From Eledone cirrhosa (lineage: Eukaryota): a stretch of DNA of 64,000 bases. Location of the stretch: NCBI GenBank assembly GCA_964016885.1, contig OZ024741.1, positions 389,856,001 through 389,920,000 of the forward strand. The letters run 5' to 3'. Made by a program: the position numbers and the translations under genes. This document shows, in pieces, positions 35,092 to 59,620 of this stretch (positions are counted from its first letter, which is position 1; each line of letters opens with the position of its first letter). Under the pieces are notes generated by a model. That model was not told the origin of the DNA, did no database searches, and saw only the letters and a list, made by a program, of their open reading frames with translations.

Positions 35092-35282
35092 TCAGAATGG
35101 AGGCAGTAAAAACCAGTTAGTCCATTACTCACCAGAGTACTCGATACTTGGGGTAGTAGAGTGGGTAATATGAAAAATTTAGGATCCCAACGGCTGAGCT
35201 CCTGCCTTTTCAATAGCTAGAGTTCGGATCTAACTGTTGAAATGGCAGGAGCTCAGCCATCGGGATCCTGAATTTTTCATAT
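35092..35282 (-). mobile_element. Mini fold-back element (palindrome plus conserved tail), copy 1
   Basis: Hairpin 35168-35282; unpaired 35092-35167 is homologous to 42741-42817. Confidence 0.75.
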
Positions 35283-35283
35283 A

Positions 35284-36095
35284 TCATCATCATCATCATC
35301 ACTGTTTTACGTCCGTTCTTCCACGCTAGCATGGGTTAGACGCGTTGTCCTGTTGTAGGCAGTGTCCAGTCGGCTGACCATGCCTTGCTCATATGGGAAC
35401 TGATTCTGGCTTGATTTCTACAGCTGGATGCCCTTCCTAACACCAACCTCATTTACAGTGAGTGCTGGGTGCTTTTTCGTGGCGCCTACACGTCCACTTT
35501 ACAGTGTGGGCTGGGTGCTTTTTTGCCATGGCACCTCCACGACCACTTTGCAGTGGGAGGGGGTGGGGGCATATTGTCTATATGCTTCAGCTTCGGCTTG
35601 TACTCGTGGGGGGTCGGGTCTTCTGTATTACTGTGTGACGCCAGAGGTCACGGCCGTGTGTCATCGCCTTTGAGAGGTGTAATTGGGTAAGGTCCGCTTT
35701 TATCACCTCATCCCAGGTCTTCTTGGGTCTCCCCACTCCGCGGTTTCCATTGACTTCTAATGCTCTGCACCTTTTTATGCAGCTGTCATCCTTCATACGC
35801 ATCACATGTCCATACCAACGCAACCTCCTCTTCTGCACACAGCATTTGATTCCTCTTATGCTTAGTCTCTCTCTCAATTCGTTTATATTTTGCCGTTCGC
35901 GTATATTACTATTACACATCCATCGGAGCATACAGGCTTCATTTCTTTCTAATCTGCGCAACTCTTCTACAGACTGCGACCAGGTCTCACTACCATGTAA
36001 CATTGCTGTTCGTATACACGCATCATACAATCTGCCTTTCATTTTGAAGGAAAAGCCTTTTGCAGCTAGCAGTGGTAGTAGCTCCCTGAACTTCT
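35284..36095 (-). mobile_element. RTE LINE 3' fragment with complete 3'UTR
   Basis: ORF 35587-36042 MKGRLYDACIRTAMLHGSETW...; (ATG)n tail. Confidence 0.92.
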
Positions 36096-36138
<43 letters not shown>

Positions 36139-36943
36139 TTTACAGTGCTGAGACAGGGGAAACCTCTAATCATGGGAGTACTCAATGCATGGGGAAATGC
36201 AGAATGGGTATAGAGATATGTAAATTCCAGACTGCAATTTTACCACCTCTTCTCCCCATATGGTCATGTATGAGCCTCTGTGTATGCATGTGTTGTGTGA
36301 TTGTGTATGGATGTGCATGTCTATATGTATATGTTTGCTCATCACTGTGCAGGCATACATGTGAATGTGCTTGTGTGTACATACTCTACCCACTCTTTCC
36401 ATTTACTCACTTATTTGCTCTGTAAACATTTACCTTACCCCATTCCTTTCATTAAAGTAATAATTCATTTATTTATTCATGCATTTCTCTGTAAAACCTT
36501 CTAAACCTCTCCATTATACTTGTGTGGGCTTGTATGTATGCTGTATACACATAGTACACTTTATTAATGGTTACCAACCCCATATAATCCACTATTTTAC
36601 CATTTGTTCATTTACCTCTATATAACCCACTTTTTATTGTTAATTCTATTCTTTACTTAAAAATACTCCTTTAGCCTCTAAGCGATCTCTATAAATAGCC
36701 CTACCCCCACCTCCTCCACCACCTATTCCTATGACCATTCTCTTCATATGCAAATCCTACCCACTAACCACCCCTACCCTCATTCACACTACTTCTTTCT
36801 CCTGACCCCTTGCCTGTCCAGATACACTTACTATTCTCTGCACCCACCCCCATTTTCTCCATCAGACCAGTTTACTACTATGATAAATTCAACCAAAGCA
36901 CTACCAAGACCAGTGACCTATTTTTTCACACCTTACAAATATT

Positions 36944-37001
36944 ACTGCACCCTTGAAAAGGCTTGCTGAACAAACAAGCCGAAACCACTTGGTGCCGCGG
37001 T
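36944..37001 (+). ncRNA. Degenerate hammerhead motif, U3-A8 variant core
   Basis: CACCC-TTGAAAA-GGCTTG(CTGAACAAA)CAAGCC-GAAA-CCACTT-GGTG; cleavage triplet not intact. Confidence 0.45.
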
Positions 37002-37027
37002 CTGAAATTATATATATATATATATAT

Positions 37028-37198
37028 ACTAATAATAATAAAAAGGACGGTGTGTTAAATCTTCATTACATTTATTGGGGTGTGATGCATGTTTTGCAAT
37101 TGATCAGCTCCAGGCTCAATCTGTATCGATCTGGCCCGATTCAATACAGATCAATCGCGAAATTCACATCACACCTCAATAAATTTAATAAAGATTTA
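37028..37198. mobile_element. Mini fold-back element, different family
   Basis: Imperfect inverted repeat 37056-37105 / 37149-37198 with a one-sided ~28-nt extension, inside (TA)n. Confidence 0.6.
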
Positions 37199-37209
37199 TA
37201 TATATATAT

Positions 37210-40200
37210 ACATCATCATCATCATCATCATCAGGTTTAGCGTCCGTGTTCCACGCTTGCATGGGTTTGGACGGGGGTTTTCCCACTTGAGGCAAGAGTG
37301 GTTGTCTTGCTCGCATAGGACTGTCTGGCGGGTTTTCTACAGTTGGATGCCCTTCCTAACACCAACCACATTTACAGTGTGGGGCTGGGAGGTTTTTACC
37401 GTGTTGCCTACACGGCCACATTACAGCGTGGACTGTCTGGCGGGTTTTCTACAGCTGGATGCCCTTCCTAACACCAACCACATTTACAGTGTGGGGCTGG
37501 GAGGTTTTTACCGTGTTGCCTACACGGCCACATTTACAGCGTGGACTGTGTGTTTTTTTGTCGTGACACCTACATGATCTCATTTGTTTCGGCCTGGATG
37601 TTGTGGGACCAACATAACTTTACATTGAAAGGGGCGGTGTGGATGGGGTGGAGGTGGTGGGACGGGGGGGGGGGGGGGTTTGATAGAGATGCCTACTGAC
37701 TGTAGTAGGTTTTTACTTTGTATTTAGGTAAGGCGGGTCTTCTCTATTACTGAGTACCGCCAAAGGTCTCGGTCCAGTGACATTGTTTGGAGAGGTGTAA
37801 GCGTGTGAGGTCGGAATTTATCAGCTCGTCCCATGTTTTTCTGGGTCTGCCTACTCCGTGGCTACCGTCTATCTTTATTGCCCTGCACTTTGTTATACAG
37901 CTGTCGTCTTTCATGCGCATCACGTGACCGTACCAACGTAGCCTTCTCTCGAGTAAACAACATCTGATCCCTCTTATTTCTAATTTTTTCCTTAGTTCGT
38001 TTATGCTTTGCCGTTCACGTATATTACTATTGCACATCCAGCGGAGCATGCAAGCTTCATTCCTCTCTAGTCTGCGTATATCCTCTGCACACAATGCCCA
38101 GGTCTCACTGCCATGCAGCATTGCTGTTCGTATGCAGGCATCGTACAACCTGCCTTTCATTTTTAGGGAGAACCCTCTAGCGGCTAATAGTGGTATAAGC
38201 TCTCTGAACTTTTTCCATCCAGTTCTGACTCTAGCTACTGTACTTTCAGAGCACCCTCCCCCACTGCTGATTTTGTCACCCAGGTAACGGAAGCTGTCCA
38301 CTATTTCTATAGAACCCTCTGCGCAGTTGAAGGAGCTAGTATTTTGTGGGCACTTGCTGCTACTTATTGCACCAGAGCACCGGCCCCATGTAAAATCTAT
38401 GTTCTTAGTTAGCTTACCTGTGATCCCACTACATCTTTTATGCACCCATACTTTGCATTTGGGACATAAAATGGAGTTTCTACCTACGCCTTTCCTACAC
38501 ACTGAGCATGGCCATTTCCCAGATGGGACTGCCGCCATATTTTCTTTCCTACAAACTAGAACTTTTGTCTTAGCCAGGTTAATTTTAAGGCCTTTTGATT
38601 CTAGGCCGTGCTTCCATGTTTGGAATTTCTTCTCTAGTTCGGTCATTGATTCAGCTATGAGCGTTAGATCATCTGCGTATAGGAGTTCTCATGGGCAGCC
38701 GGTCTTGAACTCCTCTGTTATAGCCTGAAGGGCAATAATAAATAGTAGGGGGCTAAGAACAGAGCCCTGATGGACACCAACTTTTACGCTAAACTCTTCA
38801 CTATATTCGTTGTTAATTCTAACCTTGCTGACTGTTTCTTTATACATGGCTTGTATAGCTCTCACAAGCCATTCGTCAACACCTAGTTTTCTAAGAGACC
38901 ACCAGATAATGGAACGGGGGACTCTGTCGAAGGCTTTCTCCAAGTCGACGAAAGCTAAGTATAGGGGTTTACTTTTAGCTAGGTACTTCTCCTGTAGTTG
39001 TCGTACAATGAAAAGAGCGTCTGTGGTACTTTTGCCTGACACAAATCCGAACTGCATTTCATCTAGATCAATTCTCTCTCTGATTAGTTGCGCTATTACT
39101 TTTTCCGTGACCTTCATGACCTGGTCGATTAATTTAATGCCTCTATAGTTACTCCTATCTAGGGCATCTCCTTTTCCCTTATAGCAGTTAACGATGATGC
39201 TGCTACGCCAGTCCTTCGGAACAACCCCATTCTGTACGACTTGGTTAACTATCCGGGTGACCATGGTGTGTCCCACCGAACCAGATGCCTTCAGCATCTC
39301 AGCAACTATTTCCGAAGGACCAGCCGCCTTACCCGTCTTCATATCTTTGATTGCCTTGCTTATTGTACTACCCTGGACTAACACTGCTGGTCCCTCTATT
39401 GGGTCGATGTGGGGGAGACTGTCTTTCTCCCATTTGTTCTCCTCATTTAGAAGCCTTTCGTAGTGACACTTCCAAGCTACCTTCTTATCAGCGTCGGTGA
39501 TGGCAAGTATGCCATCATCGTTAAGCACACACTTCTCCCCGATAATATCACGGTTTTCCTTGACACATTGCCTGGCAATCCTGAACACCTCTCGTTTTTG
39601 GTCCTCACGTTGTAGAACATGCTTGAACTTTCTTTCCTCTGCTTCCCTTCTTGCGAAGTACACTTGTCTCCTAGCTTCCCTCCTGGCTACCTGATAGTCT
39701 TCTCTACTTCCCCCATCCCGCCATGCTTTCCAAGCCTGCTTTTTGGCCTTAATTGACTCCTCCACCTTACTGTTCCACCACCATGTTACTCTCCTCCTAC
39801 CTACAGGCCTGCTCCAGCCACAGACTTCGTCTGCCGCCGTCAGCAGGTTTGCTCTCAGGAATTCCCACTGTTCCTCTATATTATACGACTCTAATTGCTC
39901 TTCCTTACTGTCGAAAGCGTCAAGTAATATGCTTTGAAATTTATTTCTGGCTATGGGGTCCTTTAGCTTCCATATTTTTCTCCTGAGGATAGTCCTCTTC
40001 CGCTGTCTAGTACATCTCGTCCTGACTATGAGGTCACTAATTATCAGTCTATGTTGGGAGGTGAATTCTTCATGGGGGAGGGATTTAGTGTTAACAACAG
40101 ACACTCTGTCACGTCTTCTGGTAAGGATATAATCTACCTGGCTTGTGTGTTCCCTCGATCTATAGGTGATCAAGTGATTGTCTCGTTTTTTGAAGTTAGT

Positions 40201-41070
40201 GTTACAGATAGTTAAGTTATTTGCGTCGCAGAATTCCAGGATTCTGGAGCCTTCCTCATTTCTAGTACCGAACCCATAGCCTCCATGGATTCCGTCATAG
40301 CCGTCACAATGCTGTCCAACGTAACCATTTAGGTCGCCTGCAATAACTATATAGTCACTGTCGGTTATTTGGGAGGTAGCGAGCATCAGTGTCTCGTAGA
40401 ATCTGTCTTTTATAGCACCGGGCAGTCCGGATTGTGGTGCGTACGCAGATATTACTGTCACCGTAGTTTTATTGAGGACAAGTCTTATTTTAATTATTCT
40501 GTCGTTCACTCTATTTACGTCTATCATCTTATCTGCCCACTTTTCTGCTACCATGATTCCTACCCCACCCAACCCATTGTCATTTCCCACCCAGAAAAGC
40601 TTATAGCATCGTTCTTTACCCACGATGAATCTAGCCGACCCTCCCCTCCACCTGGTCTCTTGAATACAACAAACATCGACCTCCTTACGTTCAAGCATTT
40701 CTACAACCTCGTTAGAGCGACCCTTTAAGGTGCCTACATTCATGGTACCAACTCTGAAGTTTTGGATTGCGTTTGGAGGGCGGGAGCGGTGGGGCGCGCG
40801 GGGGGGGGGGGGGGATGGGGTTATGTTAGCCATCCTGGGCCGAAACAAGGCGGAGTGCTTGCATTCTCGTCCACGAGGTGAATTTGTCTTTATCTTTGGC
40901 ATTGTCGCTGAGCGTCCACATTTTTCTCTCTTCAACTCTCCAGAATTCCGTAGTCCATCCGTCATATCGAAAAGCAACCAGTTAGGCGATAGTATGGGCC
41001 TCTGACTTATGATTGGTCCACGTAATAATGGTGGTGCGTGGGGGCGGGTGGGAGGAATGATGTGTTGTTA
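37210..41070 (-). mobile_element. Near full-length RTE LINE
   Basis: Single APE+RT frame; 3'UTR with internal duplication (~37317-37545); (ATG)n tail in (TA)n. Confidence 0.95.
37747..40977 (-). pseudogene. RTE APE endonuclease-reverse transcriptase polyprotein, disrupted
   Basis: APE motifs GTMNVGTL, CIQETRW, SAYAPQ, AGDLNG, QVDYIL, SQHRLI; RT motifs FVDLEKAFDRV, QGSVLSP, then in-frame TGA (38689-38691, TGG in the copy at ~875) before ELLYADDL; 1-bp frameshift near 37785. Confidence 0.93.
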
Positions 41071-42650
41071 GCGAGAATGTAAGGTTTAAGATAAGATCAC
41101 CGTATTTTGGGCATAATTTAACAATAAACGAAAATACAAGATTTGTTTTGTTTAAGAAAATACGATAGAGAAAATGCGGTGATAGGGAAAATATGATTTT
41201 TAGAGAAAAAAAAAAAAAAAATATGATATAGAATGGTGAAAATATGATATAGTGTGAAATTAGGACATAGAACAGTCATTGAATGAATGGATTCGAATGG
41301 AGAGAAGAATCGAGAAAAATATTTGGACGTTACTTTATACCGCAAGAAGAGCCATCCCAGAAATAGCGAGTTGGCGATTGTGATTAATTTTGGTAGGGAT
41401 TTATCTTATATGTATAGAGAGGGATGGGGCAGGAACCAGCATGATGTATGGGTAGGGGGTAGAAGATGGGATGGAGCAGAGGTTAAGAGTTTAAATAGGT
41501 ACTAGAAGTTTTGCGTAGAACTTAGCAAGTTTAACAAAATATATTTAAAGGAATATATAATAGTGATTTGTTTTTGTTATGAAAATACGACAGAATATGA
41601 AAATATGACAGAATTAAGCGAGAATGTAAGGTTTAAGATAAGATCGCCGTATTTTGGGCATAATTTAACAATAAACGAAAATACAAGATTTGTTTTGTTT
41701 AAGAAAATACGATAGAGAAAATGCGGTGATAGGGAAAATATGATTTTTAGAGAAAAAAAAAAAAAAAATATGATATAGAATGGTGAAAATATGATATAGT
41801 GTGAAATTAGGACATAGAACAGTCATTGAATGAATGGATTCGAATGGAGAGAAGAATCGAGAAAAATATTTGGACGTTACTTTATACCGCAAGAAGAGCC
41901 ATCCCAGAAATAGCGAGTTGGCGATTGTGATTAATTTTGGTAGGGATTTATCTTATATGTATAGAGAGGGATGGGGGGGGGGCAGGAACCAGCATGATGT
42001 ATGGGTAGGGGGTAGAAGATGGGATGGAGCAGAGGTTAAGAGTTTAAATAGGTACTAGAAGTTTTGCGTAGAACTTAGCAAGTTTAACAAAATATATTTA
42101 AAGGAATATATAATAGTGATTTGTTTTTGTTATGAAAATACGACAGAATATGAAAATATGACAGAATTAAGCGAGAATGTAAGGTTTAAGATAAGATCGC
42201 CGTATTTTGGGCATAATTTAACAATAAACCAAAATACAAGATTTGTTTTGTTTAAGAAAATACGATAGAGAAAATGCGGTGATAGGGAAAATATGATTTT
42301 TAGAGAAAAAAAAAAAAAAAATATGATATAGAATGGTGAAAATATGATATAGTGTGAAATTAGGACATAGAACAGTCATTGAATGAATGGATTCGAATGG
42401 AGAGAAGAATCGAGAAAAATATTTGGACGTTACTTTATACCGCAAGAAGAGCCATCCCAGAAATAGCGAGTTGGCGATTGTGATTAATTTTGGTAGGGAT
42501 TTATCTTATATGTATAGAGAGGGATATGGGGGGGGGGGGGCAGGAACCAGCATGATGTATGGGTAGGGGGTAGAAGATGGGATGGAGCAGAGGTTAAGAG
42601 TTTAAATAGGTACTAGAAGTTTTGCGTAGAACTTAGCAAAATATATTTAA
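41071..42650. repeat. Tandem array of ~550-bp units (about 2.9 copies)
   Basis: Units begin GCGAGAATGTAAGG at 41071, 41618 and 42171; nearly identical apart from G-run length. Confidence 0.95.
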
Positions 42651-42740
42651 CATATACATATATAATATCTAATGAGAATATATGCACATGTATACTCAGT
42701 AGGGTAAATTTTTCTGAAAATGTATATATATATATATATA

Positions 42741-42936
42741 ACGAAGGAGTTGTGGTAAGGAACCAGATCGACCATAACGCACCAGAGTACTCAATACTTA
42801 GAGTAGTAGAGTGGGTAATAGGAAAATGTATGACCCTGACGGCAGAACTCAAGCCGTTTCGACGGCTATTTCTGGACTCCAGAAATAGCCGTCGAAATGG
42901 CTTGAGTTCTGCCGTCGAGGTCATACATTTTCCTAT
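42741..42936 (-). mobile_element. Mini fold-back element (palindrome plus conserved tail), copy 2
   Basis: 59-bp arms 42818-42876 / 42878-42936 centred on 42877 with three non-Watson-Crick positions; (TA)n on both sides. Confidence 0.8.
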
Positions 42937-43067: not shown

Positions 43068-43105
<38 letters not shown>

Positions 43106-43108
<3 letters not shown>

Positions 43109-45910
43109 TAAAATAACAGATTAAAGTTTAAGCAAAGAATCGCTGCTTTCACCCTTAACGGGATCTTCTGAAACTAACAAAGTCAATCTGTAAACGCAGA
43201 ACTGGATATTTCAAAAAACGTTGCAACCGGAGGAAGACAGGAAGACGATACTTTGGTTCGTGGAAACGTTCGCTGGCAAAGAACGGGAAAAAACGAATAA
43301 TACGTCATTAAAAGGAGCGGTGAAAAACAATTACGCGCAAAGACAGAACCACGTTTAGGTATAAAAGAGGTCGTAGACTAATGTTCTCTTAGGTGGTGCA
43401 TAGAGACGTTCTCTGGCAATGAACGAAAAAACAAAGATAATAAGTCATATGTGGAGAACAATAGCACGCAAAGACAAAACCACGTAGATGGTATAGCAGA
43501 AGTCGTAGACTAAAATTCTAACTAGGAGACCAAATGAATCTCCGCTACAGAGTTAAGAATAAAGTAAATAAATACAATACAGAAGTAATAGAAATAAATA
43601 AATACATACACGCAAACAAATACGTACATACACAAGCATACGCAAAACCTTACCATAGGTATACAAACACACACATATAAATATGTGTGTGTGTGTGTAT
43701 GCTTGTGTACAAATAAATAAATAATTATATAAATGTATATAAGTAAATAAATACGTATATAACAATCGCACACACATACCTACATATAAATACACGAATG
43801 TTCGGAGACGTAAGTCAACTAAAACAAGAAGTACACATATACACACACTCACGATACGTACGAACCTGCATACTCACGCAGACGCAAAACTCCAGTATAC
43901 ACATAGCCAAACCCTAAATACCAGAATATATAAAAATGATACGCCATAACAATCAAATATACGTACGAGAAGGTATACAACCTTCACAAAACATACAGGT
44001 AATATATACTTACCTATGCAAATAAGTAAAGGAATAAACAAAACATATACTTAGCTCCCACATCAGGACGTAAAATATCCACGTATAGATCGTACTATCC
44101 GTTAGGGTATAACGTGGGGCTATAATACAGGAAAGTTTTGTGCAATTTATGTTTACAAGCCGAAATTGCCTCAGATTTTTTGTTTAAGATGTGGTCTGTG
44201 GCGTAGAGTATTTCCAGGGCCTCAGCGGCGCAGAGGTCACATGGTCTTTTATTTCCATTATACGATCTAGCCCTAGCTAGGATCTCCCAGTGTAACTTAT
44301 ATTGGGTGTGGTTGTCTTTTAGACTCCAGATATAAGCTGAAAGTGACGTCATATTCCTTCTTAGAGGGTAACGAAAAGAATGGGTATGCATGTAAAGACG
44401 CTGCTTGAAACTATTGGCGGTTAACCCTATGTAGGCCCTACGGGATGTGGGTGTTACAACCTTATATTTGTAGACAATGTTACTAGAGAGGCATTTCCCG
44501 GATAGGGGGCAATCAGCCCGATTCCTACAATTACAGTTAGTACTAACTACAGGGTTACACGTGTTCCTACGGCTAGGTAGTTTAGCTAAATTTGAAGCTG
44601 TGATGTTATGTGCAAGGTTAGGAGTTGTAGAGTAAGAAATTTTAATAGTATTTCTATTAAAAATTTTACTATGTTTATGTGTAGGGGGAAAATGCTTCGT
44701 AATAAGGGAAAGAAAGATCTTAGCTAATGGTGTGGCCACCTCCATATTATATGGTGGGTTAAACCAACAAATGCGACGGGATCTATTTCTTCTAGGTCTA
44801 TTTTCGTACTCTGTATATGCTACCTTATCGACAAATCCACTTCGAGCAAGAGCTTCATTGTAATAAGTGGAATGGTCATTGAAAATGCGCTCATTGGTGG
44901 AAAGACGGGAAAGCCTCAACGAAACGTTTCTTACCAGGTTCTTGGTTATGCTGGCAGGATGGTTGGAATGCTTACTTATGTAATTAAGCGTATCATTCGG
45001 CTTTCTATATGGGTAATACAACCCATTCAATAAATTGAGGGTAACGTCGAGGTAATTAACGACCGAGAGATTGGCCTCAACCTGTATAGAGAGGTTGAAG
45101 CCTTTAAAGAAGGCTGTGAGTTCTTTTCTGAACCTGTCGCAAGCACGAGGTCCGCACTTAGTCATGGTCAAAAGACCATCGTCACGGTACAAACCACCGC
45201 CCGTGTTGGGGAATTCGTCCTTGATAGAGAAAAGAAGGAAAACGCCAATAAGATCAGTAACCTCCGCAGAGTCACTGGCGCCCATACTCACGTCGAATGG
45301 GGTACTATTGGATTTTTTAATCCAAAAAGAGTCGTCGAAATTAATCACCGACTTTCGGGCATTGAAATCCTTAACCACTGTGAGTGTTTTAGCGAAATTG
45401 ATAGCTCTAAGGAGAAGTGGTAAAGTGATGGAGGAGTAGTAATTGTTGATGTCGAATTGGATAAAACGGCAATGTTCCTTGTTGCATATGCCGTTGAACC
45501 AATCAATCACCGCGAAAGAATTGTTCCACAGTGCAAGAGGGGCCAAACTTCTAATTTCAGGTATAATTCTATCAAGAATCGTTTTACTAAGTCTACCTAC
45601 ATCCGACTTCGTAGGGTTAATAAGCCGAATAGCGGGGTTGTTCGGAAAATTGGATTTGTGATCCTTCAGGGTAAAGTGGGGAGAAATAGGGTCCAGAGGT
45701 TCCGTCCGGTCCAGGATGTTGAGATCAGATGTGATTTTAAACCCAGCATCGTTGATTTCATTGATGACGCACCGATTAGTTTTACGGTAATCCTTAGTTA
45801 CAGCATTATGTAGCAGTTGATGGTAAGTACTGCGCTCCACTTGATATAGGTTGCCAGTTTTGTCGGAATGGACGTGCACGGCGTTAGAATACTTAATAGA
45901 ACGAATAGGT
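43106..45910 (-). mobile_element. Penelope-like element (Naiad-type), 5'-truncated, with ~1-kb 3' region
   Basis: RT+GIY-YIG ORF; 3' region has a diverged direct repeat (43266-43381 / 43407-43512) and ends in (TA)n. Confidence 0.85.
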
Positions 45911-45954
45911 ATTTTTGTGTTTGAACAGGTATTTATTTCAGTAGACATGCACAA
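44095..45954 (-). CDS. Penelope-like reverse transcriptase with GIY-YIG endonuclease (partial)
   Basis: SDKTGNLY, LKDHK, RLINPTKS, QFDINNYYSSI, MGASDSAEVTDLIG, GLYRDDGL, YLDVTL, SNHP, WFNPPY, CNCR..CPL..C, IVY...YIGLT, CDLC..E; the first ~15 aa are probably flank. Confidence 0.9.
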   Translation of the reverse strand: MCMSTEINTCSNTKIPIRSIKYSNAVHVHSDKTGNLYQVERSTYHQLLHNAVTKDYRKTNRCVINEINDAGFKITSDLNILDRTEPLDPISPHFTLKDHKSNFPNNPAIRLINPTKSDVGRLSKTILDRIIPEIRSLAPLALWNNSFAVIDWFNGICNKEHCRFIQFDINNYYSSITLPLLLRAINFAKTLTVVKDFNARKSVINFDDSFWIKKSNSTPFDVSMGASDSAEVTDLIGVFLLFSIKDEFPNTGGGLYRDDGLLTMTKCGPRACDRFRKELTAFFKGFNLSIQVEANLSVVNYLDVTLNLLNGLYYPYRKPNDTLNYISKHSNHPASITKNLVRNVSLRLSRLSTNERIFNDHSTYYNEALARSGFVDKVAYTEYENRPRRNRSRRICWFNPPYNMEVATPLAKIFLSLITKHFPPTHKHSKIFNRNTIKISYSTTPNLAHNITASNLAKLPSRRNTCNPVVSTNCNCRNRADCPLSGKCLSSNIVYKYKVVTPTSRRAYIGLTANSFKQRLYMHTHSFRYPLRRNMTSLSAYIWSLKDNHTQYKLHWEILARARSYNGNKRPCDLCAAEALEILYATDHILNKKSEAISACKHKLHKTFLYYSPTLYPNG

Positions 45955-46560
45955 ATCACTACAGCTATACTTCTACAGGTGTGCATGCAAGTACACGCAT
46001 GCATTAGCAGGCACATATACACACAACAATGTAAAAACTTTGCATATGAGAGATAAATAGTTAGATAGACAGGTAGGTAGTTATGTAGGTAAATGGAAAG
46101 AGAGAGAGAGGGTGGAGAAAGAAAAAGAGCTAAGGCAAAACTGATTAATTTGTTTATTTACAAATACACCCAGCCACACAAAAAATACACACACACTTAT
46201 ACATATATACACAGCTTTAATCAAAATTCTATTTCATATTAGGGAACATTCTATTACGTATTAGGGAAAATTGAGGAGCTCCACTCTCTATTTCATTTTG
46301 TTACTTCTGTATTCTCTGTTCTATGTCTGGTGTATTCTCTATCCTGTGTCCTCTCTACTTTTCTTCTACATCCTTTGTTCCTTTCTAATTTCCTTGGCCC
46401 ACTCACATGAACTTCTTCCTCATAAACAACTGACTGATCTATACATTATTCTATGTACTATACATGCACCTTTGACGAGTTGTAGTGCACCTGAGCACTT
46501 TACACAATAATTTCATTATTATTACATACACACAAACACACACATATGGATGTATGTGTA

Positions 46561-52043: not shown

Positions 52044-52643
52044 TATATATATATTTATGTGTCAGGTCGCTCTTCAGCACTATTGGTAACATGTAACCCA
52101 GTACAAACTGTACATTGTCAGGTCGTTGGCAACTAAACTGGCAACCCCACAAAGCTTGCTTGGTGAGGAAGGTGTTTTGGACACCCATTGGGATGAAAAG
52201 CAAAACCCGTCAAATGACAGAGAAACTCAAGAGAATCAGTGGCAATCCAATAAAGTTTTTTTGTTTTTTTTTTTGTCTTCATTAAAACATCTCTCTAGGA
52301 AAAGGTCACTCTGATATAAAACCTGTGACTTCTTTGCATCCACTTTTTCTTTTTGGGCAAATGTATTTGATGTTTAGAGAGTGGGATTGGCCCAGTGTAA
52401 AGCCTTTCCTCACTTAAAAAAGCTTCACGCACAGGCATCACTTGATATGTGACATTTTTTGCGATTTATGGTTTTGCTTGGCCATAGGCAAGTCTCTTGC
52501 AGGAGTAAAAAGCTACGTCCGTGAATCTCATGCTTAAGTATCAAGCGATGGCATTATTCAAAATTGAGTTGCTGCCATCATATATATATATGTGTATATA
52601 TACGATATTAAATAAATGGAAACTATATTTATAAAACCATATT

Positions 52644-52709
52644 TATTTCATTATATATATTTCAGGGATATCATATTAACAATATGCTATGCCTTCCTCA
52701 GACAAAATA
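52644..52709 (-). ncRNA. Type I hammerhead ribozyme (mirror copy)
   Basis: Reverse complement of 58335-58400. Confidence 0.75.
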
Positions 52710-54059
52710 CAATATAGACAGTTTTATAGATAAATAGATTTGACATACCGTTCAACATCGACTTGTATTTGAAAAGTTGATTTGGCAGTGAAAAAATTGT
52801 AAACAAAAAGAAAGAAAGAGAGAGAAGGAAAGAAAGAAAAGAAAGAAAGAAAACGAAGAAAAAGAAGAAAAAGAAGAAATGCATGTAACAAAATAGAGAG
52901 ATGGAAAGATAGATAAAGAGAAGAACTTCATGTAAAGAAACAGAGAGAGATATATATAGAGAGAGGAAATAGATAGAGATAGATATATATAGAGAAAAGT
53001 AGGTAGATGGACATCCGTTGAATAAACGTATCAATGATACATTTATTTATTTATTTATTTATTTAGCTCTAGTATTAATGTAAGGGAGATATATGTGGTT
53101 AGGAGAGAAACCAGCTGTTATATAGAGAGAAAAATGAAAAGTAACCAGACATAGGCGAGGCATAAAAACCCTATGTTTTAATGTAGAAGTATTAGTATGT
53201 ATAAAAACCAGGCACTATAATGTAAATATCAGTATTCCTGAATGAGACACGTGTCCATAATGTGTGAAAAGTAATGATCTTATGTTTAGTTTTAAAAATT
53301 CATATGTTTATATGATAACTACAAACATCGATGTGAATTTACGTGATCAACTCTGCAAACCCCAATTTCACACGGAGAACATTCTCATTGTGCTATAAAA
53401 ATTTAAGTATACATATATGTGTATATATATACACATATATATAGAGTCTATATTAATTTTAACAATACTATTCTTGTCTTTACTCTACATGATTATCTAT
53501 CAAGCAGAAATAGAGAACAGATCTCAATATATTAATAAAAAATATATTAATAAAAAAAATATCAGAAACAAAAACAAAAAATAATAATAATAATAATAAT
53601 AATAAATAATAATAAAATAGAAAACTAAAAAATATTACGAAAAAATATTACATATTAAAAATAAAAATATTAGAAAATACTACAATAATAAAAATAAACC
53701 ACAAAGATCAACCCTTCAAAATTAATTGACAATATATTGCCAAGTTCATTATAAGCATCAGAGTCGAAAACAGATAAAGCTAAAAATTATTTATCAAATC
53801 GCGTCTAGCAAAAATCATTTCAAAAAGTTTAGGATGCCCATTTGGTCTACATGCGTTCTTATATTTAATATAGAAGTTTATCTAGTGTAACGTTTATTCG
53901 AAATATTTGGAGCATCAACTTTTAGGGTAGTTTAATTTTTCATGAAGAATGTTTAAATAAAAATAAAAATAAAAATAAAAATAAAAAGAAGAATAAAAAG
54001 AAGAAATCGAAAGATTTATCGGCTCGTTTCCCAAATAATTATAAATCAAACTAAATATA

Positions 54060-55886
54060 CTACATTTTAAATTTAAATTTATATTTAAAAGTTGAATTTA
54101 ATCTATGTTTGCAGCAACTGAATAAATTTGTCCGTAGATTAAGGGAATTTTTAGATTTTAGTATAAAGAATATCTCCTCTGCGCAGAGGTCACATGTCTC
54201 AGAGGATGAATTAAAAGGAATCCCTCTTGAGACTATATTCCAAGCCGTCGAATATCTAACGTTATCTAGCTTAAGTTGCCAGAGTACGCCTGATAGTGCT
54301 GTTGAAGATTTTTTGCTTGGATCTGTGAAAGAATTCTTGTGGTTATTATAGCGAAGTTTAAATTCCGTCGATGTGGAACCGACGTAGTTAAAAGAATTAG
54401 AGTCAGTTTTAACATTACAATTGTATATTATATTTTTAACTAAGCAGTTGTTATTTAACGGACATTTAGATCTATCTCTACAGTTACATTTGTTAACTTG
54501 TATATTATTTATGCTATTACCACTAGGTTTTAAGTTCCTATTATTTATTCTATTAATATTTTGTGCTAAATTTTTGGTGGATGAGTAGGTTAATTTTATA
54601 GTATGTCTATTGAAAATTGAGTGATACCTATGTGTTCTAGGGAAGCGATTATCAAGAGCTTTAAAAAATAGTTTAGCGATGTGGGTTTTAATGTTTAGTG
54701 AGAAAGGGGGGGCAAACCAAATTATGTTCCTAGTTCTATTTCTTTTTTGGCTTTTGGAATTATTGTAATGCTTTCTATTATAGTTGTTAAGGTTGTTGCC
54801 GTAATTAAAATAGTTGTTATTTTGTTTAGTTTGTCTATCATTATCTATGTACATAATCTTATCACTATATCCTGCTCTAGCTAACGCTTCATTGTAGTAC
54901 TGGGCTTTTTCGTCGAAAATCTTTCTATTAGACGAGATTCTAGAGATACGTTTTTGAACAGAGTTTACTATAGTGTTTTTGACAGATCTGGGGTGGTTAG
55001 AGTTAAAGCTGACATAGTTTAAGTTTTCATTCAACTTGTGAAAAGGATAGTGAAGACATGTGTTGAGATTTAATGTTATATCTAGGAAATTGACTATTCT
55101 ATGGTTGTTCTCAATTTCTATTTTAAGATTAAAGTAATTAAAAAATTGTGTAATTTGTTTACTTTTTCTATTTAGTTCAGAGTTATTATTATCAATAAGT
55201 AAAAGCATGTCATCTCTATATAAACCTCCGGTAGTACCAGGTATTTTCCTATGTAGCGAATTGATTAAAAATAAGCCCACAAGGTCAGTTACCTGAGCTG
55301 AGTCGGATGATCCCATAGTAATGTCAAAATTGCTATCTCTATCTGTCCATAGTTGGTCATTAAATTCTATCAATGTTTTCCTAGCCGATAATATAATGTG
55401 CATTTCATTGCTAGTTAGGTCTGTATGTTTGAATGCGTAATTTAGTGCCTTATTTAGTAGATTAGGGGTAATAGAAGAATAATAGTTAGCAATATCAAGT
55501 TGAATAAACTTATTATTATTGTTATATTTAATTTGCTTAAACCACTCAACAACCTCTCCAGTTCCCTTCCACAAGCTCAGGTTAGGTAAACAATCCAAGT
55601 TCTTAATTTGCTGTATCACCCTGTCAAGAATGTTTTTGCTTAATTTGCCCAGGTCCGATTTTGATGGTGTGATCAATCTAACTGGCAAGTCATTTTCAAA
55701 ATTCCTTTTGTGATCTTTCATATTGATCTTCGGTTTCCTGGGCACGAAAGGTTGTGTTCTGTTCTCAATTTCCAACTCGTGCATTATACAAGATGCTTCG
55801 ACATTCATTTTCTCAAGCTCGGCCTTATCTGCTACCTTGTACTTTTTCCTCAGTTCCTTCAGTATGAGGCCATTATACATGTCTTT
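54060..55886 (-). CDS. Penelope-like RT with GIY-YIG endonuclease, 5'-truncated
   Basis: MKDHK, RLITPSKS, QLDIANYYSSI, MGSSDSAQVTDLVG, GLYRDDML, FLDITL, SNHP, WFAPPF, CNCRDRSKCPL..C, IIY...YVGST, CDLCAEE; the N-terminal ~19 aa of the track ORF come from the inverted arm. Confidence 0.9.
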   Translation of the reverse strand, partial: KDMYNGLILKELRKKYKVADKAELEKMNVEASCIMHELEIENRTQPFVPRKPKINMKDHKRNFENDLPVRLITPSKSDLGKLSKNILDRVIQQIKNLDCLPNLSLWKGTGEVVEWFKQIKYNNNNKFIQLDIANYYSSITPNLLNKALNYAFKHTDLTSNEMHIILSARKTLIEFNDQLWTDRDSNFDITMGSSDSAQVTDLVGLFLINSLHRKIPGTTGGLYRDDMLLLIDNNNSELNRKSKQITQFFNYFNLKIEIENNHRIVNFLDITLNLNTCLHYPFHKLNENLNYVSFNSNHPRSVKNTIVNSVQKRISRISSNRKIFDEKAQYYNEALARAGYSDKIMYIDNDRQTKQNNNYFNYGNNLNNYNRKHYNNSKSQKRNRTRNIIWFAPPFSLNIKTHIAKLFFKALDNRFPRTHRYHSIFNRHTIKLTYSSTKNLAQNINRINNRNLKPSGNSINNIQVNKCNCRDRSKCPLNNNCLVKNIIYNCNVKTDSNSFNYVGSTSTEFKLRYNNHKNSFTDPSKKSSTALSGVLWQLKLDNVRYSTAWNIVSRGIPFNSSSETCDLCAEEIFFILKSKNSLNLRTNLFSCCKHRLNSTFKYKFKFKM

Positions 55887-56984
55887 CAAATTACACAATT
55901 TTTTAATTACTTTAATCTTAAAATAGAAATTGAGAACAACCATAGAATAGTCAATTTCCTAGATATAACATTAAATCTCAACACATGTCTTCACTATCCT
56001 TTTCACAAGTTGAATGAAAACTTAAACTATGTCAGCTTTAACTCTAACCACCCCAGATCTGTCAAAAACACTATAGTAAACTCTGTTCAAAAACGTATCT
56101 CTAGAATCTCGTCTAATAGAAAGATTTTCGACGAAAAAGCCCAGTACTACAATGAAGCGTTAGCTAGAGCAGGATATAGTGATAAGATTATGTACATAGA
56201 TAATGATAGACAAACTAAACAAAATAACAACTATTTTAATTACGGCAACAACCTTAACAACTATAATAGAAAGCATTACAATAATTCCAAAAGCCAAAAA
56301 AGAAATAGAACTAGGAACATAATTTGGTTTGCCCCCCCTTTCTCACTAAACATTAAAACCCACATCGCTAAACTATTTTTTAAAGCTCTTGATAATCGCT
56401 TCCCTAGAACACATAGGTATCACTCAATTTTCAATAGACATACTATAAAATTAACCTACTCATCCACCAAAAATTTAGCACAAAATATTAATAGAATAAA
56501 TAATAGGAACTTAAAACCTAGTGGTAATAGCATAAATAATATACAAGTTAACAAATGTAACTGTAGAGATAGATCTAAATGTCCGTTAAATAACAACTGC
56601 TTAGTTAAAAATATAATATACAATTGTAATGTTAAAACTGACTCTAATTCTTTTAACTACGTCGGTTCCACATCGACGGAATTTAAACTTCGCTATAATA
56701 ACCACAAGAATTCTTTCACAGATCCAAGCAAAAAATCTTCAACAGCACTATCAGGCGTACTCTGGCAACTTAAGCTAGATAACGTTAGATATTCGACGGC
56801 TTGGAATATAGTCTCAAGAGGGATTCCTTTTAATTCATCCTCTGAGACATGTGACCTCTGCGCAGAGGAGATATTCTTTATACTAAAATCTAAAAATTCC
56901 CTTAATCTACGGACAAATTTATTCAGTTGCTGCAAACATAGATTAAATTCAACTTTTAAATATAAATTTAAATTTAAAATGTAG
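55887..56984 (+). pseudogene. Inverted duplicate of the C-terminal RT thumb and GIY-YIG region
   Basis: Translation identical to the 54060 ORF from QITQFFNYF onward; lacks the catalytic YRDD. Confidence 0.88.
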
Positions 56985-58334
56985 TATATTTAGTTTGATT
57001 TATAATTATTTGGGAAACGAGCCGATAAATCTTTCGATTTCTTCTTTTTATTCTTCTTTTTATTTTTATTTTTATTTTTATTTTTATTTAAACATTCTTC
57101 ATGAAAAATTAAACTACCCTAAAAGTTGATGCTCCAAATATTTCGAATAAACGTTACACTAGATAAACTTCTATATTAAATATAAGAACGCATGTAGACC
57201 AAATGGGCATCCTAAACTTTTTGAAATGATTTTTGCTAGACGCGATTTGATAAATAATTTTTAGCTTTATCTGTTTTCGACTCTGATGCTTATAATGAAC
57301 TTGGCAATATATTGTCAATTAATTTTGAAGGGTTGATCTTTGTGGTTTATTTTTATTATTGTAGTATTTTCTAATATTTTTATTTTTAATATGTAATATT
57401 TTTTCGTAATATTTTTTAGTTTTCTATTTTATTATTATTTATTATTATTATTATTATTATTATTTTTTGTTTTTGTTTCTGATATTTTTTTTATTAATAT
57501 ATTTTTTATTAATATATTGAGATCTGTTCTCTATTTCTGCTTGATAGATAATCATGTAGAGTAAAGACAAGAATAGTATTGTTAAAATTAATATAGACTC
57601 TATATATATGTGTATATATATACACATATATGTATACTTAAATTTTTATAGCACAATGAGAATGTTCTCCGTGTGAAATTGGGGTTTGCAGAGTTGATCA
57701 CGTAAATTCACATCGATGTTTGTAGTTATCATATAAACATATGAATTTTTAAAACTAAACATAAGATCATTACTTTTCACACATTATGGACACGTGTCTC
57801 ATTCAGGAATACTGATATTTACATTATAGTGCCTGGTTTTTATACATACTAATACTTCTACATTAAAACATAGGGTTTTTATGCCTCGCCTATGTCTGGT
57901 TACTTTTCATTTTTCTCTCTATATAACAGCTGGTTTCTCTCCTAACCACATATATCTCCCTTACATTAATACTAGAGCTAAATAAATAAATAAATAAATA
58001 AATGTATCATTGATACGTTTATTCAACGGATGTCCATCTACCTACTTTTCTCTATATATATCTATCTCTATCTATTTCCTCTCTCTATATATATCTCTCT
58101 CTGTTTCTTTACATGAAGTTCTTCTCTTTATCTATCTTTCCATCTCTCTATTTTGTTACATGCATTTCTTCTTTTTCTTCTTTTTCTTCGTTTTCTTTCT
58201 TTCTTTTCTTTCTTTCCTTCTCTCTCTTTCTTTCTTTTTGTTTACAATTTTTTCACTGCCAAATCAACTTTTCAAATACAAGTCGATGTTGAACGGTATG
58301 TCAAATCTATTTATCTATAAAACTGTCTATATTG

Positions 58335-58400
58335 TATTTTGTCTGAGGAAGGCATAGCATATTGTTAATATGATATCCCTGAAATATATATAATGAAATA
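58335..58400 (+). ncRNA. Type I hammerhead ribozyme in the Penelope-like 3' terminus
   Basis: TATTTTGT-CTGAGGA-AGG(..CATATT GTT AATATG..)CCT-GAAA-TATATA-TA-ATGAAATA; stem I is 8 bp with two G-U pairs; predicted cut after 58392. Confidence 0.78.
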
Positions 58401-58539
58401 AATATGGTTTTATAAATATAGTTTCCATTTATTTAATATCGTAAATATACTCCAAATACTTGTTGAGTGCTTTTATATCAGTTATAAATATTTACTAGTT
58501 GTAACCCAACAATTTAAATATAACTTTCCATATATGTAT

Positions 58540-58697: not shown

Positions 58698-58730
58698 GTA
58701 TATATGTATATATATATATGTGTGTATGTA

Positions 58731-59550
58731 TTGAATAAGAAAAAGCGAAGTAGTTTCACATGTTAAAGTCCTTTAATGATAATGCTGTGATACATATTTC
58801 AATGACGACAGTGGCGACATGCTGTCTGATGATGTCACGGCACTGGGTATACTGAAGCGTGTGGCCACTTTTTAATCTTTAATTTTTAATCTTTAATTTT
58901 TAATTTCTAATTTTCAATCATAATTTCCACTGTGAAACCATAATACCTAGAAATAAGTATATATTCTCTTAACGGGTGATGGTCAATTCTATTGTCCATG
59001 CTTAATTTAGGGGTAGTATTGACACCTATTGAAACTCATACTCTCCCACCCCCACTAGGTTTCGGCCAACTGCCACTGGCAGGGCAACTAGCAGTAAACT
59101 ATAACCGTGTCATATTACAGACCTGGATGGGGTGATTGTTTGGTTGAGAGGGGGACCTGCCTAGGCGAGTTTCGTAGAACTTTGGGGTAGTTGATGGTCA
59201 ACTTCCTTCAGACTTGCGCCTGCGCAGATCGGTGGGGGTGAATTGGGACTCACAAGGGAACGGGTGAAGAATTCAAGAACACACACTTTGTCCGTTCCGA
59301 TGTCGATTCAATTTGGATTGCCTCGGAAACATAACCTTATTATGTAGGAAGCTGTCTGATGATGTCACGGCACTGGGTACACCGAACCGTGTGACCACTG
59401 TTGTCATTGAAATATGTATCACAGCATTATCATTAAAGGACTTCAACATCTGAAACTACTTCGCATTTTCTTATTCGATATATACTCCGTCACTCCTATG
59501 TGGAAAAAGTACGTTGAGTGCTTGAACTGAATTGCATCAATGTTTACCTT
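58731..59550 (+). mobile_element. Non-autonomous hammerhead-bearing Penelope-like / retrozyme-like element
   Basis: Direct repeat 58821-58869 / 59351-59399 (period 530); inverted repeat 58731-58814 / 59396-59478; tail 59479-59550; no ORF. Confidence 0.7.
59351..59425 (+). ncRNA. Type I hammerhead ribozyme with long stem II
   Basis: GCTGT-CTGATGA-[ACGGCA/TGTTGT, TGG/CCA, TACAC/GTGTG]-GAAA-TATGT-ATC-ACAGC; stem I GCTGT/ACAGC is perfect. Confidence 0.72.
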
Positions 59551-59620
59551 ATGTATATATATGTATGTATATATGTGTGTGTGTGTATATATATGTATGT
59601 GTGTGTATATATATATATAT

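Follow-up and report, generated by a model that had tools for sequence, protein, structure and literature searches.

Short tail-and-hairpin insertions in Eledone cirrhosa as probable products of Hydra-clade Penelope-like elements

The window analysed here is a stretch of 64,000 nucleotides from Eledone cirrhosa (GenBank assembly GCA_964016885.1, contig OZ024741.1, positions 389,856,001 to 389,920,000 of the forward strand). It contains two short elements, copy A (at 35092) and copy B (at 42741), each of which consists of a tail followed by a hairpin. The question that they raise is how the two arms of one hairpin can resemble each other more closely than they resemble the arms of the other copy. 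The answer has two parts: A and B are almost certainly the ends of two related Penelope-like elements (PLEs) of the Hydra clade, and the palindrome was probably formed by joining two cDNAs. In the following, short insertions of this kind are called minis, and labels of the form L### denote genomic loci retrieved in this study.

The two copies and their parent elements

Both copies comprise a tail of 77-78 nt and a hairpin of 114-118 nt, just as the initial annotation had described, and they are the sole hairpins in the window that pass a window-wide scan (loop <30 nt, arm score of at least 25, GC of at least 0.25). The coordinates of their parts are listed in Table 1. A and B are 72.7% identical over 172 columns (blastn against the window, E 8e-23). 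The arms of A are 89% identical to each other and those of B 95%, versus 69% between an A arm and a B arm, close to the 70% estimated earlier by eye. TA runs adjoin both copies, as had also been noted; to the right of A, a short TA stretch is followed by an (ATC)n run. An Rfam search of the window gave no match.

The origin of arm and tail can be read from long copies, which were found by searching with sequence that extends past the hairpin apex of some copies. In these, the arm is the last ~60 nt of the pseudo-long terminal repeat (pLTR) and the tail is the first 77-78 nt beyond it; the arm runs on into the 3' untranslated region (UTR) and an open reading frame (ORF) for reverse transcriptase (RT) and GIY-YIG endonuclease, and the tail runs on into the 5'UTR and the ATG. 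The suspected tie to Penelope RT/GIY-YIG elements is thus borne out. In family B, the ORF's C-terminus lies ~720 nt upstream of the arm in at least 9 of 30 loci selected for interior sequence, and the search proposed in the initial annotation, for PLEs ending in the same arm and tail, succeeds, for example, in L121, which holds a complete pLTR-tail-ORF-3'UTR-pLTR unit of 3096 bp with a 300-bp pLTR. The arm and tail of copy B are 92.8% identical to this full element over 138 nt. In family A, the ORF ends ~1.1 kb upstream of the arm in L122 and L123 (78.7% alike over 1844 nt), and the arm and tail of copy A are 85-88% identical to the long copies L063, L064, L075 and L080. The tail of copy A appears to lie between two RT start sites, and the homologous tail continues into the 5'UTR and ATG in the tandem family-B copies L103, L107 and L109. 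For each mini subfamily tested, a long parent with the same arm exists. When contigs of two runs are compared with the full element, its pLTR end and its tail end each have loose ends that lead into (TA)n.

Table 1. Positions of the parts of copies A and B and of other PLEs in the window (+1, the A of TYAGTY at which arms stop; see text)
Feature	Position	Strand	Remarks
Copy A tail, 77 nt	35092..35168	-	Start of PLE 5' leader after pLTR end
Copy A hairpin	35168..35282		
Copy A tail-bearing arm, 53 nt	35169..35221	-	pLTR 3' end of PLE family A; ends short of +1 site (copy A = L031, L=53)
Copy A tail-less inverted arm	35220..35281	+	Begins at +1 A (35221), with G at 35220 before it; 3' half of hammerhead-like motif, with GAAA at 35239-35242 and a candidate cleavage site after 35261
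Copy B tail, 78 nt	42741..42818	-	Start of PLE family-B 5' leader
Copy B hairpin	42818..42936		
Copy B tail-bearing arm, 60 nt	42819..42879	-	Ends exactly at +1 site (42878), then C at 42879
Copy B tail-less inverted arm, 58 nt	42878..42935	+	3' half of hammerhead-like motif, with GAAA at 42894-42897 and a candidate cleavage site after 42916
Long PLE of the same layout, other Hydra-type family	52594..58530	.	Inverted arms 52594-55157 and 55887-58450; tail from 58451
5'-truncated Hydra-type PLE, third family	43103..45972	-	~50% amino-acid identity to family-B ORF; not copy B's parent

The assignment to the Hydra clade rests on protein motifs. By motif reading, the translations of L121 and L124 give one ORF with a YRDD core and a C-terminal VIY..YIG endonuclease; the natural PLE copies that were read contain frameshifts and stops. 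The RWK-like LRWRT and the DKT-type SDKTG are found in L121 (family B), while the N-terminus of family A was not recovered. We used a definition of the clade by a CxCX5C linker and by CxxC and CxH around conserved E and N (PMC8557442). The linker, CxxC and CxH read CNCPDRSTC, CNLC and CKH in B (L121) and CTCPDRSSC, CNLC and CKH in A (L122). The octopus member Hydra-1_Obim, to which the elements bear a resemblance judged by eye, targets (TA)n (PMC8557442 supplement); (TA)n flanks are seen on most listed copies by inspection, and such runs mask any target-site duplication. In addition, a layout with a partial-tandem pLTR, an inverted 5'-truncated copy and a tail at one end occurs in L121, L124 and L093-L097, and the combination of an inverted 5'-truncated copy with a tail at one end is a known PLE layout (PMC8557442).

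Database searches add little to this assignment. The PLE ORFs match nothing in Pfam or PDB; for the window proteins at 44095-45972 and 54060-55958, Pfam is empty even at E 10. A homologue search gives 2254 matches, nearly all of them unnamed, so that no clade label is obtained. Since Pfam is silent despite these homologues, such elements are easily overlooked in annotation. A DNA search with the tail of subfamily B2 gave no match despite the abundance of that subfamily, probably because very common words are skipped. Helentron/HINE, DIRS, Crypton, a TA-targeting Mutator miniature inverted-repeat transposable element (MITE), densovirus termini and a tRNA-derived short interspersed element were considered as candidates and abandoned after the ORF link.

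Read in the sense direction, the arm forms the 3' half of a hammerhead-like motif of type I; the whole motif, with three helices, occurs only in long copies. The core is TTGACAA (U3-A8) in 23 of 26 family-B hits (L121, L092 and other long copies), and U3-A8 is a noted hammerhead variant (PMC4209133). Half of the 10 hits in families A and C have the core CTGAGGA, with mixed C3-A8 and U3-G8 cores also present; family A is mostly C3-G8. The helix II region is ~55 nt long and holds the likely transcription start described below. A few arm ends fall at 17-20 nt, with no clear peak at the hammerhead cleavage site (19 nt). Minis are head-to-head and without the YUGANRA strand, and therefore differ from retrozymes, which are tandem and carry a complete type I hammerhead.

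The parent families also account for the mirrored differences between copies. The first 45 nt of the arms were compared in 51 two-armed copies, and arm-arm identity equals copy-copy identity in families A (85.5 vs 84.6%, n=12) and C (84.2 vs 83.9%, n=13); in family B, in which subfamilies are mixed, the values are 93.3 vs 86.7% (n=26). Over the same 45 nt, the arms of families A and B are 74% identical. The equality within families indicates that the mirrored differences are differences between parent families that were present at birth, and that the arms decay independently after insertion. Pairing selection, which the initial annotation had offered as an explanation, and ongoing gene conversion are therefore unneeded.

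Minis are very abundant. One 24-mer from the B arm has 26,796 exact occurrences in the genome (3.0 Gb), against none for its reversed control. Moreover, 56 stretches of 10 kb, whose positions were picked without regard to content, contain 28 clusters in 560 kb, which corresponds to ~150,000 copies genome-wide (95% interval 104,000-223,000, computed for 29).

The common stop and the extra base

Arm lengths were measured from tail anchors. After removing 12 overlapping loci, 159 anchors remained, of which 118 were kept; those left out were anchors selected for a long interior and duplicate views of two-tailed copies. The tail queries carried 12 and 32 nt of arm, which causes a mild bias against very short arms. 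Tail arms end 50-64 nt from the pLTR end in 66 of the 118 copies and beyond 70 nt in 6; for tail-less arms the numbers are 62 and 6 of 86. The second arm went undetected in 32 of the 118, and the median size of a mini is 192 nt. Since both arms have the same stop although the cDNA with the tail is 78 nt longer, the stop is set by a site in the template and not by length.

In fact, one template position is the stop of both arms in four subfamilies, and 100 of the 182 arm ends that lie within -10..+9 fall at -1..+2. The contexts seen in read-through at the stop are TTTAGTC (51), TTCAGTT (12), TTTAGTT (8) and TTCAGTC (5), together 76 of 100, so that the stop is the A of TYAGTY. This sequence matches the invertebrate initiator (Inr) consensus. 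The element mRNA probably starts at the A of TYAGTY in the upstream pLTR. Penelope has a TATA-less internal promoter with an Inr and a downstream promoter element (DPE) (PMC2377424); in the present elements, a DPE match at +28 was not convincing by eye.

The second mark at this position is an untemplated base. There are 1157 palindromes genome-wide in which both B/B2 arms reach +1 with 0-4 nt between them. A single inserted pair is present in 22 of the first 50 listed and is C:G in 20 of these, including all 10 single inserts of subfamily B, whose templated base at this point is A; a further 10 carry a C on each arm, and 7 have no insert. The untemplated first bases at +1 are C 15, T 5 and G 2 (240 arm ends, 255 loci), of which one C proved to be a duplicate view and the two G to be misassigned read-throughs. 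As A and G are templated in some references, C versus T is a fair test, and the ratio is 14:5 at +1 compared with 10:21 elsewhere (p=0.008). In L1, full-length insertions have an additional, cap-derived G at the 5' junction, which indicates that the RNA was capped and copied to its end (PMC11702581). In the window, the C at 42879 of copy B may be either cap-derived or taken from the partner arm, and the G at 35220 of copy A may be either a cap-derived base or a shared 'GA' microhomology.

Two cDNAs or one

We consider it probable that minis arise by priming twice and running off a capped RNA. Transcription would start at the Inr A within the upstream pLTR, and RT would have two start sites, as it does in the anole element PAc: one at the end of the pLTR and one at that of the tail. 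As these sites would be only 60 and 138 nt from the cap, both cDNAs would be short. Nicked (TA)n ends, likely the two sides of one cut, would prime the two cDNAs, both of which would likely run off the capped 5' end of the element mRNA, and their 3' ends would then be end-joined head to head to give tail-arm-arm'. Long or full-length insertions would need a tandem read-through RNA with a whole unit upstream of the start sites. More speculatively, the hammerhead may cut the downstream pLTR and remove the 3' start sites; with only cap-proximal start sites left, minis would outnumber long insertions. Stated at its broadest, the commonest Hydra-clade PLE product here would be a ~190-bp 'strong-stop' insertion, twin-primed by run-off from one capped mRNA, with ~10^5 insertions that record, base by base, where transcription begins, where the cap lies and where RT starts in each of the two cases; PLE inverted ends would then be settled as twin priming, and the short perfect hairpins left across the genome would be a possible major source of double-stranded RNA (dsRNA) for adenosine-to-inosine (A-to-I) editing. 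For this broad form we hold the chances for and against to be about equal.

Evidence on the number of cDNAs comes from the arms and the junction. In 85 copies, the tail-less arm is the longer in 39 and the tail arm in 17, and the two are within 2 nt of each other in 29. Copies with two tails are rare (3 of 118), and copies without a tail exist, such as L279. The apex is 0-1 nt in 29 of the first 50 listed double-arm junctions.

Several results weigh against the two-priming run-off account. Of the 26,796 exact B arms that extend to +1, only 5194 continue with C, while 8359 continue with the templated AAAT; in two samples of 30 loci each, C came next in only 3 and 5, and 12 of 30 B arms read far past the stop. 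In about half of the cases, the C could instead be a base of the partner arm (10 direct joins). Tail-less arms shorter than ~15-20 nt escape detection, and deletions in tail arms inflate the ratio of 39:17. No chimera of B and B2 was found among 19 discordant palindromes, all of which are point mutants or variants within B; both cDNAs would accordingly share an RNA or a source locus, arms of the same subfamily are also what fold-back predicts, and two distinct RNAs are unsupported. Finally, an Rfam search of five loci at E<=5 gave only low-scoring hairpin and microsatellite matches and no hammerhead.

The stop itself admits a competing explanation, namely that PLE origin and two primings are correct and the RT stalls on structure, or the RNA is cut, in hammerhead helix II or the inner hairpin. 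The stop does lie inside the long helix II, and families A, B2 and C have another hairpin beside it; about one third of the arms that reach +1 continue, as in the sample just mentioned; and stops are scattered over -10..+2. However, the stop is 16-18 nt beyond the first contact of RT with helix II, the same A of TYAGTY is used though loop II sequences differ among families, and a stall by itself predicts no bias toward C. We therefore regard a stall or cut as unlikely, though it is the strongest of the competitors.

Nearly the same standing, only slightly lower, is held by the proposal of the initial annotation that a single cDNA folds back and copies itself into the second arm (compare self-priming, PMC3846280). 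The absence of chimeras and the higher identity of B arms within copies (93.3%) than between them are what it predicts, a recurrent apex, GGACTCCAG, fits a one-pair snap-back, and the three two-tailed copies are whole palindromes. The fit to the remaining data is poor. Fold-back cannot make an arm longer than the one that it copies, yet the tail-less arm is often the longer one; nor can a first strand that lacks a tail provide one. The apexes of 0-1 nt leave no room for a loop, C occurs on both arms in 10 palindromes, and the two arms belong to different sub-variants of B in a few copies (L006, L280, L287). Fold-back could nevertheless apply to some copies.

The initial annotation had suggested a minimal parasite of the Penelope machinery. 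A separate, self-propagating non-autonomous family would consist of a small number of master minis that are transcribed and then mobilised again by the PLE protein. The tight size mode and the recurrent apex sequences are in favour of such a family, and nonautonomous PLE derivatives are known (PMC8557442). Against it, arm length ranges from 7 nt to >700 nt, most junctions are unique to their copy, one apex occurs on different terminal haplotypes (L001, L005, L006, L013), and the mini L009 has ORF sequence at its apex. Moreover, the parents with the same arm are at hand, and minis have none of the sequence past the tail that PAc needs (the first 172 nt of its ORF; PMC11167929). We consider such a family improbable, more so than fold-back. 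Less probable still are an ordinary MITE with terminal inverted repeats, an RNA whose structure is kept by pairing selection, and the collapse of long inverted insertions by central deletion: long palindromes are unstable, the hairpins have TA flanks and 3 of 118 copies are symmetric, but the direct link to an RT-encoding parent, the independent decay of the arms and the lack of an Rfam match oppose them, and collapse predicts neither a single stop base nor an added C.

Related elements and known systems

The window contains further PLEs (Table 1). In the element at 52594-58530, the inverted arms are 2564 nt long, 100% complementary and separated by a 729-nt spacer, and the ORFs at 54060-55958 (-) and 55665-56984 (+) contain the CxCX5C, CxxC and CxH motifs. 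The initial annotation had likened the tails of A and B to those of insertions at 58444 and 59479; the sequence likeness is marginal (23-66 of 1000 shuffles reach the score), whereas the layout of the 58444 element, inverted arms followed by a one-sided tail, is indeed shared. Relatives of this element form tail-and-hairpin minis (L024:1259, L021:678, L038:1846). An inverted PLE-like end occupies 58720-59555, with CTGATGA motifs at ~58829 and ~59358 and a tail after 59479, and L065 has a hairpin with a tail related to it. Of 38 short copies of the third family in the retrieved loci, 9 stop at 66-74 nt, where the sequence is an initiator-like TTAGTT; this pile-up suggests that the run-off rule may be general.

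Other tail-and-hairpin families were met in the retrieved loci. In one (L041:2310-2454, L021:101-224, L042:2440-2640), the arm carries a complete CTGATGA..GAAA hammerhead motif, and arms mostly end near 59-74 nt. At least two further unrelated families lie in TA runs (L019:239-358, L036:2241-2531 and L092; L046:335-493 and L030:925-1125), one of which piles up near 145-154 nt. Minis of different subfamilies stand back to back in one (TA)n run in L002, L021, L097, L144, L146, L156 and L256, so that (TA)n runs are re-targeted. L115 and L116, 44 kb apart on one contig (C2), have identical element coordinates and arm calls and represent a recent segmental or assembly duplicate. In the window, three near-identical direct repeats with a spacing of 547-553 nt lie just upstream of copy B (41070-42469), and a 792-aa ORF of a long interspersed nuclear element with endonuclease and RVT_1 domains is found at 38689-41067 (-), with many fragments elsewhere in the window.

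The origin of the tandem and inverted structures of PLEs and of their tails has been named an open question (PMC8557442). Published proposals include self-priming on an antisense template (PMC3846280), and the steps have been left unvalidated (PMC11167929). If correct, two-sided run-off priming would explain the inverted ends, and the minis would form a very large natural data set, with sharp predictions: transcription from a single base, an additional C that depends on the cap, and two cDNAs made independently. The minis also serve as a caution that a hairpin which looks 'MITE-like' and has a high copy number can be the by-product of a retrotransposon. Octopus bimaculoides has an unusually high dsRNA potential and hyper-editing (PMC5625713), and by analogy ~150,000 short hairpins could add to an octopus-type dsRNA potential and hyper-editing.

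The closest known systems are the Hydra-clade EN+ PLEs, including Hydra-1_Obim (Craig et al. 2021, PMC8557442), which share a single ORF with RT and C-terminal GIY-YIG, the LRWR (RWK-like) and DKT motifs, the CxCX5C linker, CxxC..E..N..CxH, the (TA)n target and an inverted 5'-truncated copy with a tail at one end; they have a hammerhead motif in the pLTR, which may correspond to the hammerhead-like motif seen here. They differ in that the tail is 77-78 nt here, with a unit of 3.1 kb, compared with 30-40 bp in the PLEs described there, and six short motifs of the present families have no match in the accessible supplement text, which points to different families.

PAc, a Poseidon element of Anolis carolinensis (Frangieh et al. 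2024, PMC11167929), resembles the scheme proposed for the minis in having two internal RT starts that define the tail, a hammerhead near the start sites, and both target strands cut and extended in vitro; it is predicted to act as a dimer. It belongs to another clade, and the available text gives no account of an inverted structure or of run-off minis. In L1 twin priming (PMC11702581, citing Ostertag and Kazazian 2001), two cDNAs from opposite target ends are likewise end-joined and the 5' end of the RNA is marked by one more base, but the cDNAs cover adjacent, non-overlapping RNA, whereas minis would copy the same 60 nt twice and so become palindromes. Non-LTR retrozymes, which have a type I hammerhead, are likewise short and non-coding and derive from a pLTR, but as head-to-tail tandems with the whole ribozyme, unlike the head-to-head minis with its 3' half only (10.64898/2026.07.22.740005). 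No prior description of a ~190-bp, fixed-stop, C-marked mini class was found in the literature searched, which included the PMC8557442 supplement by term and left subscription papers, Dfam, Repbase and bioRxiv supplements outside. The element class is thus a known one, and the C-marked fixed stop on both arms, which has a direct bearing on Penelope integration, is what is new in comparison with these systems.

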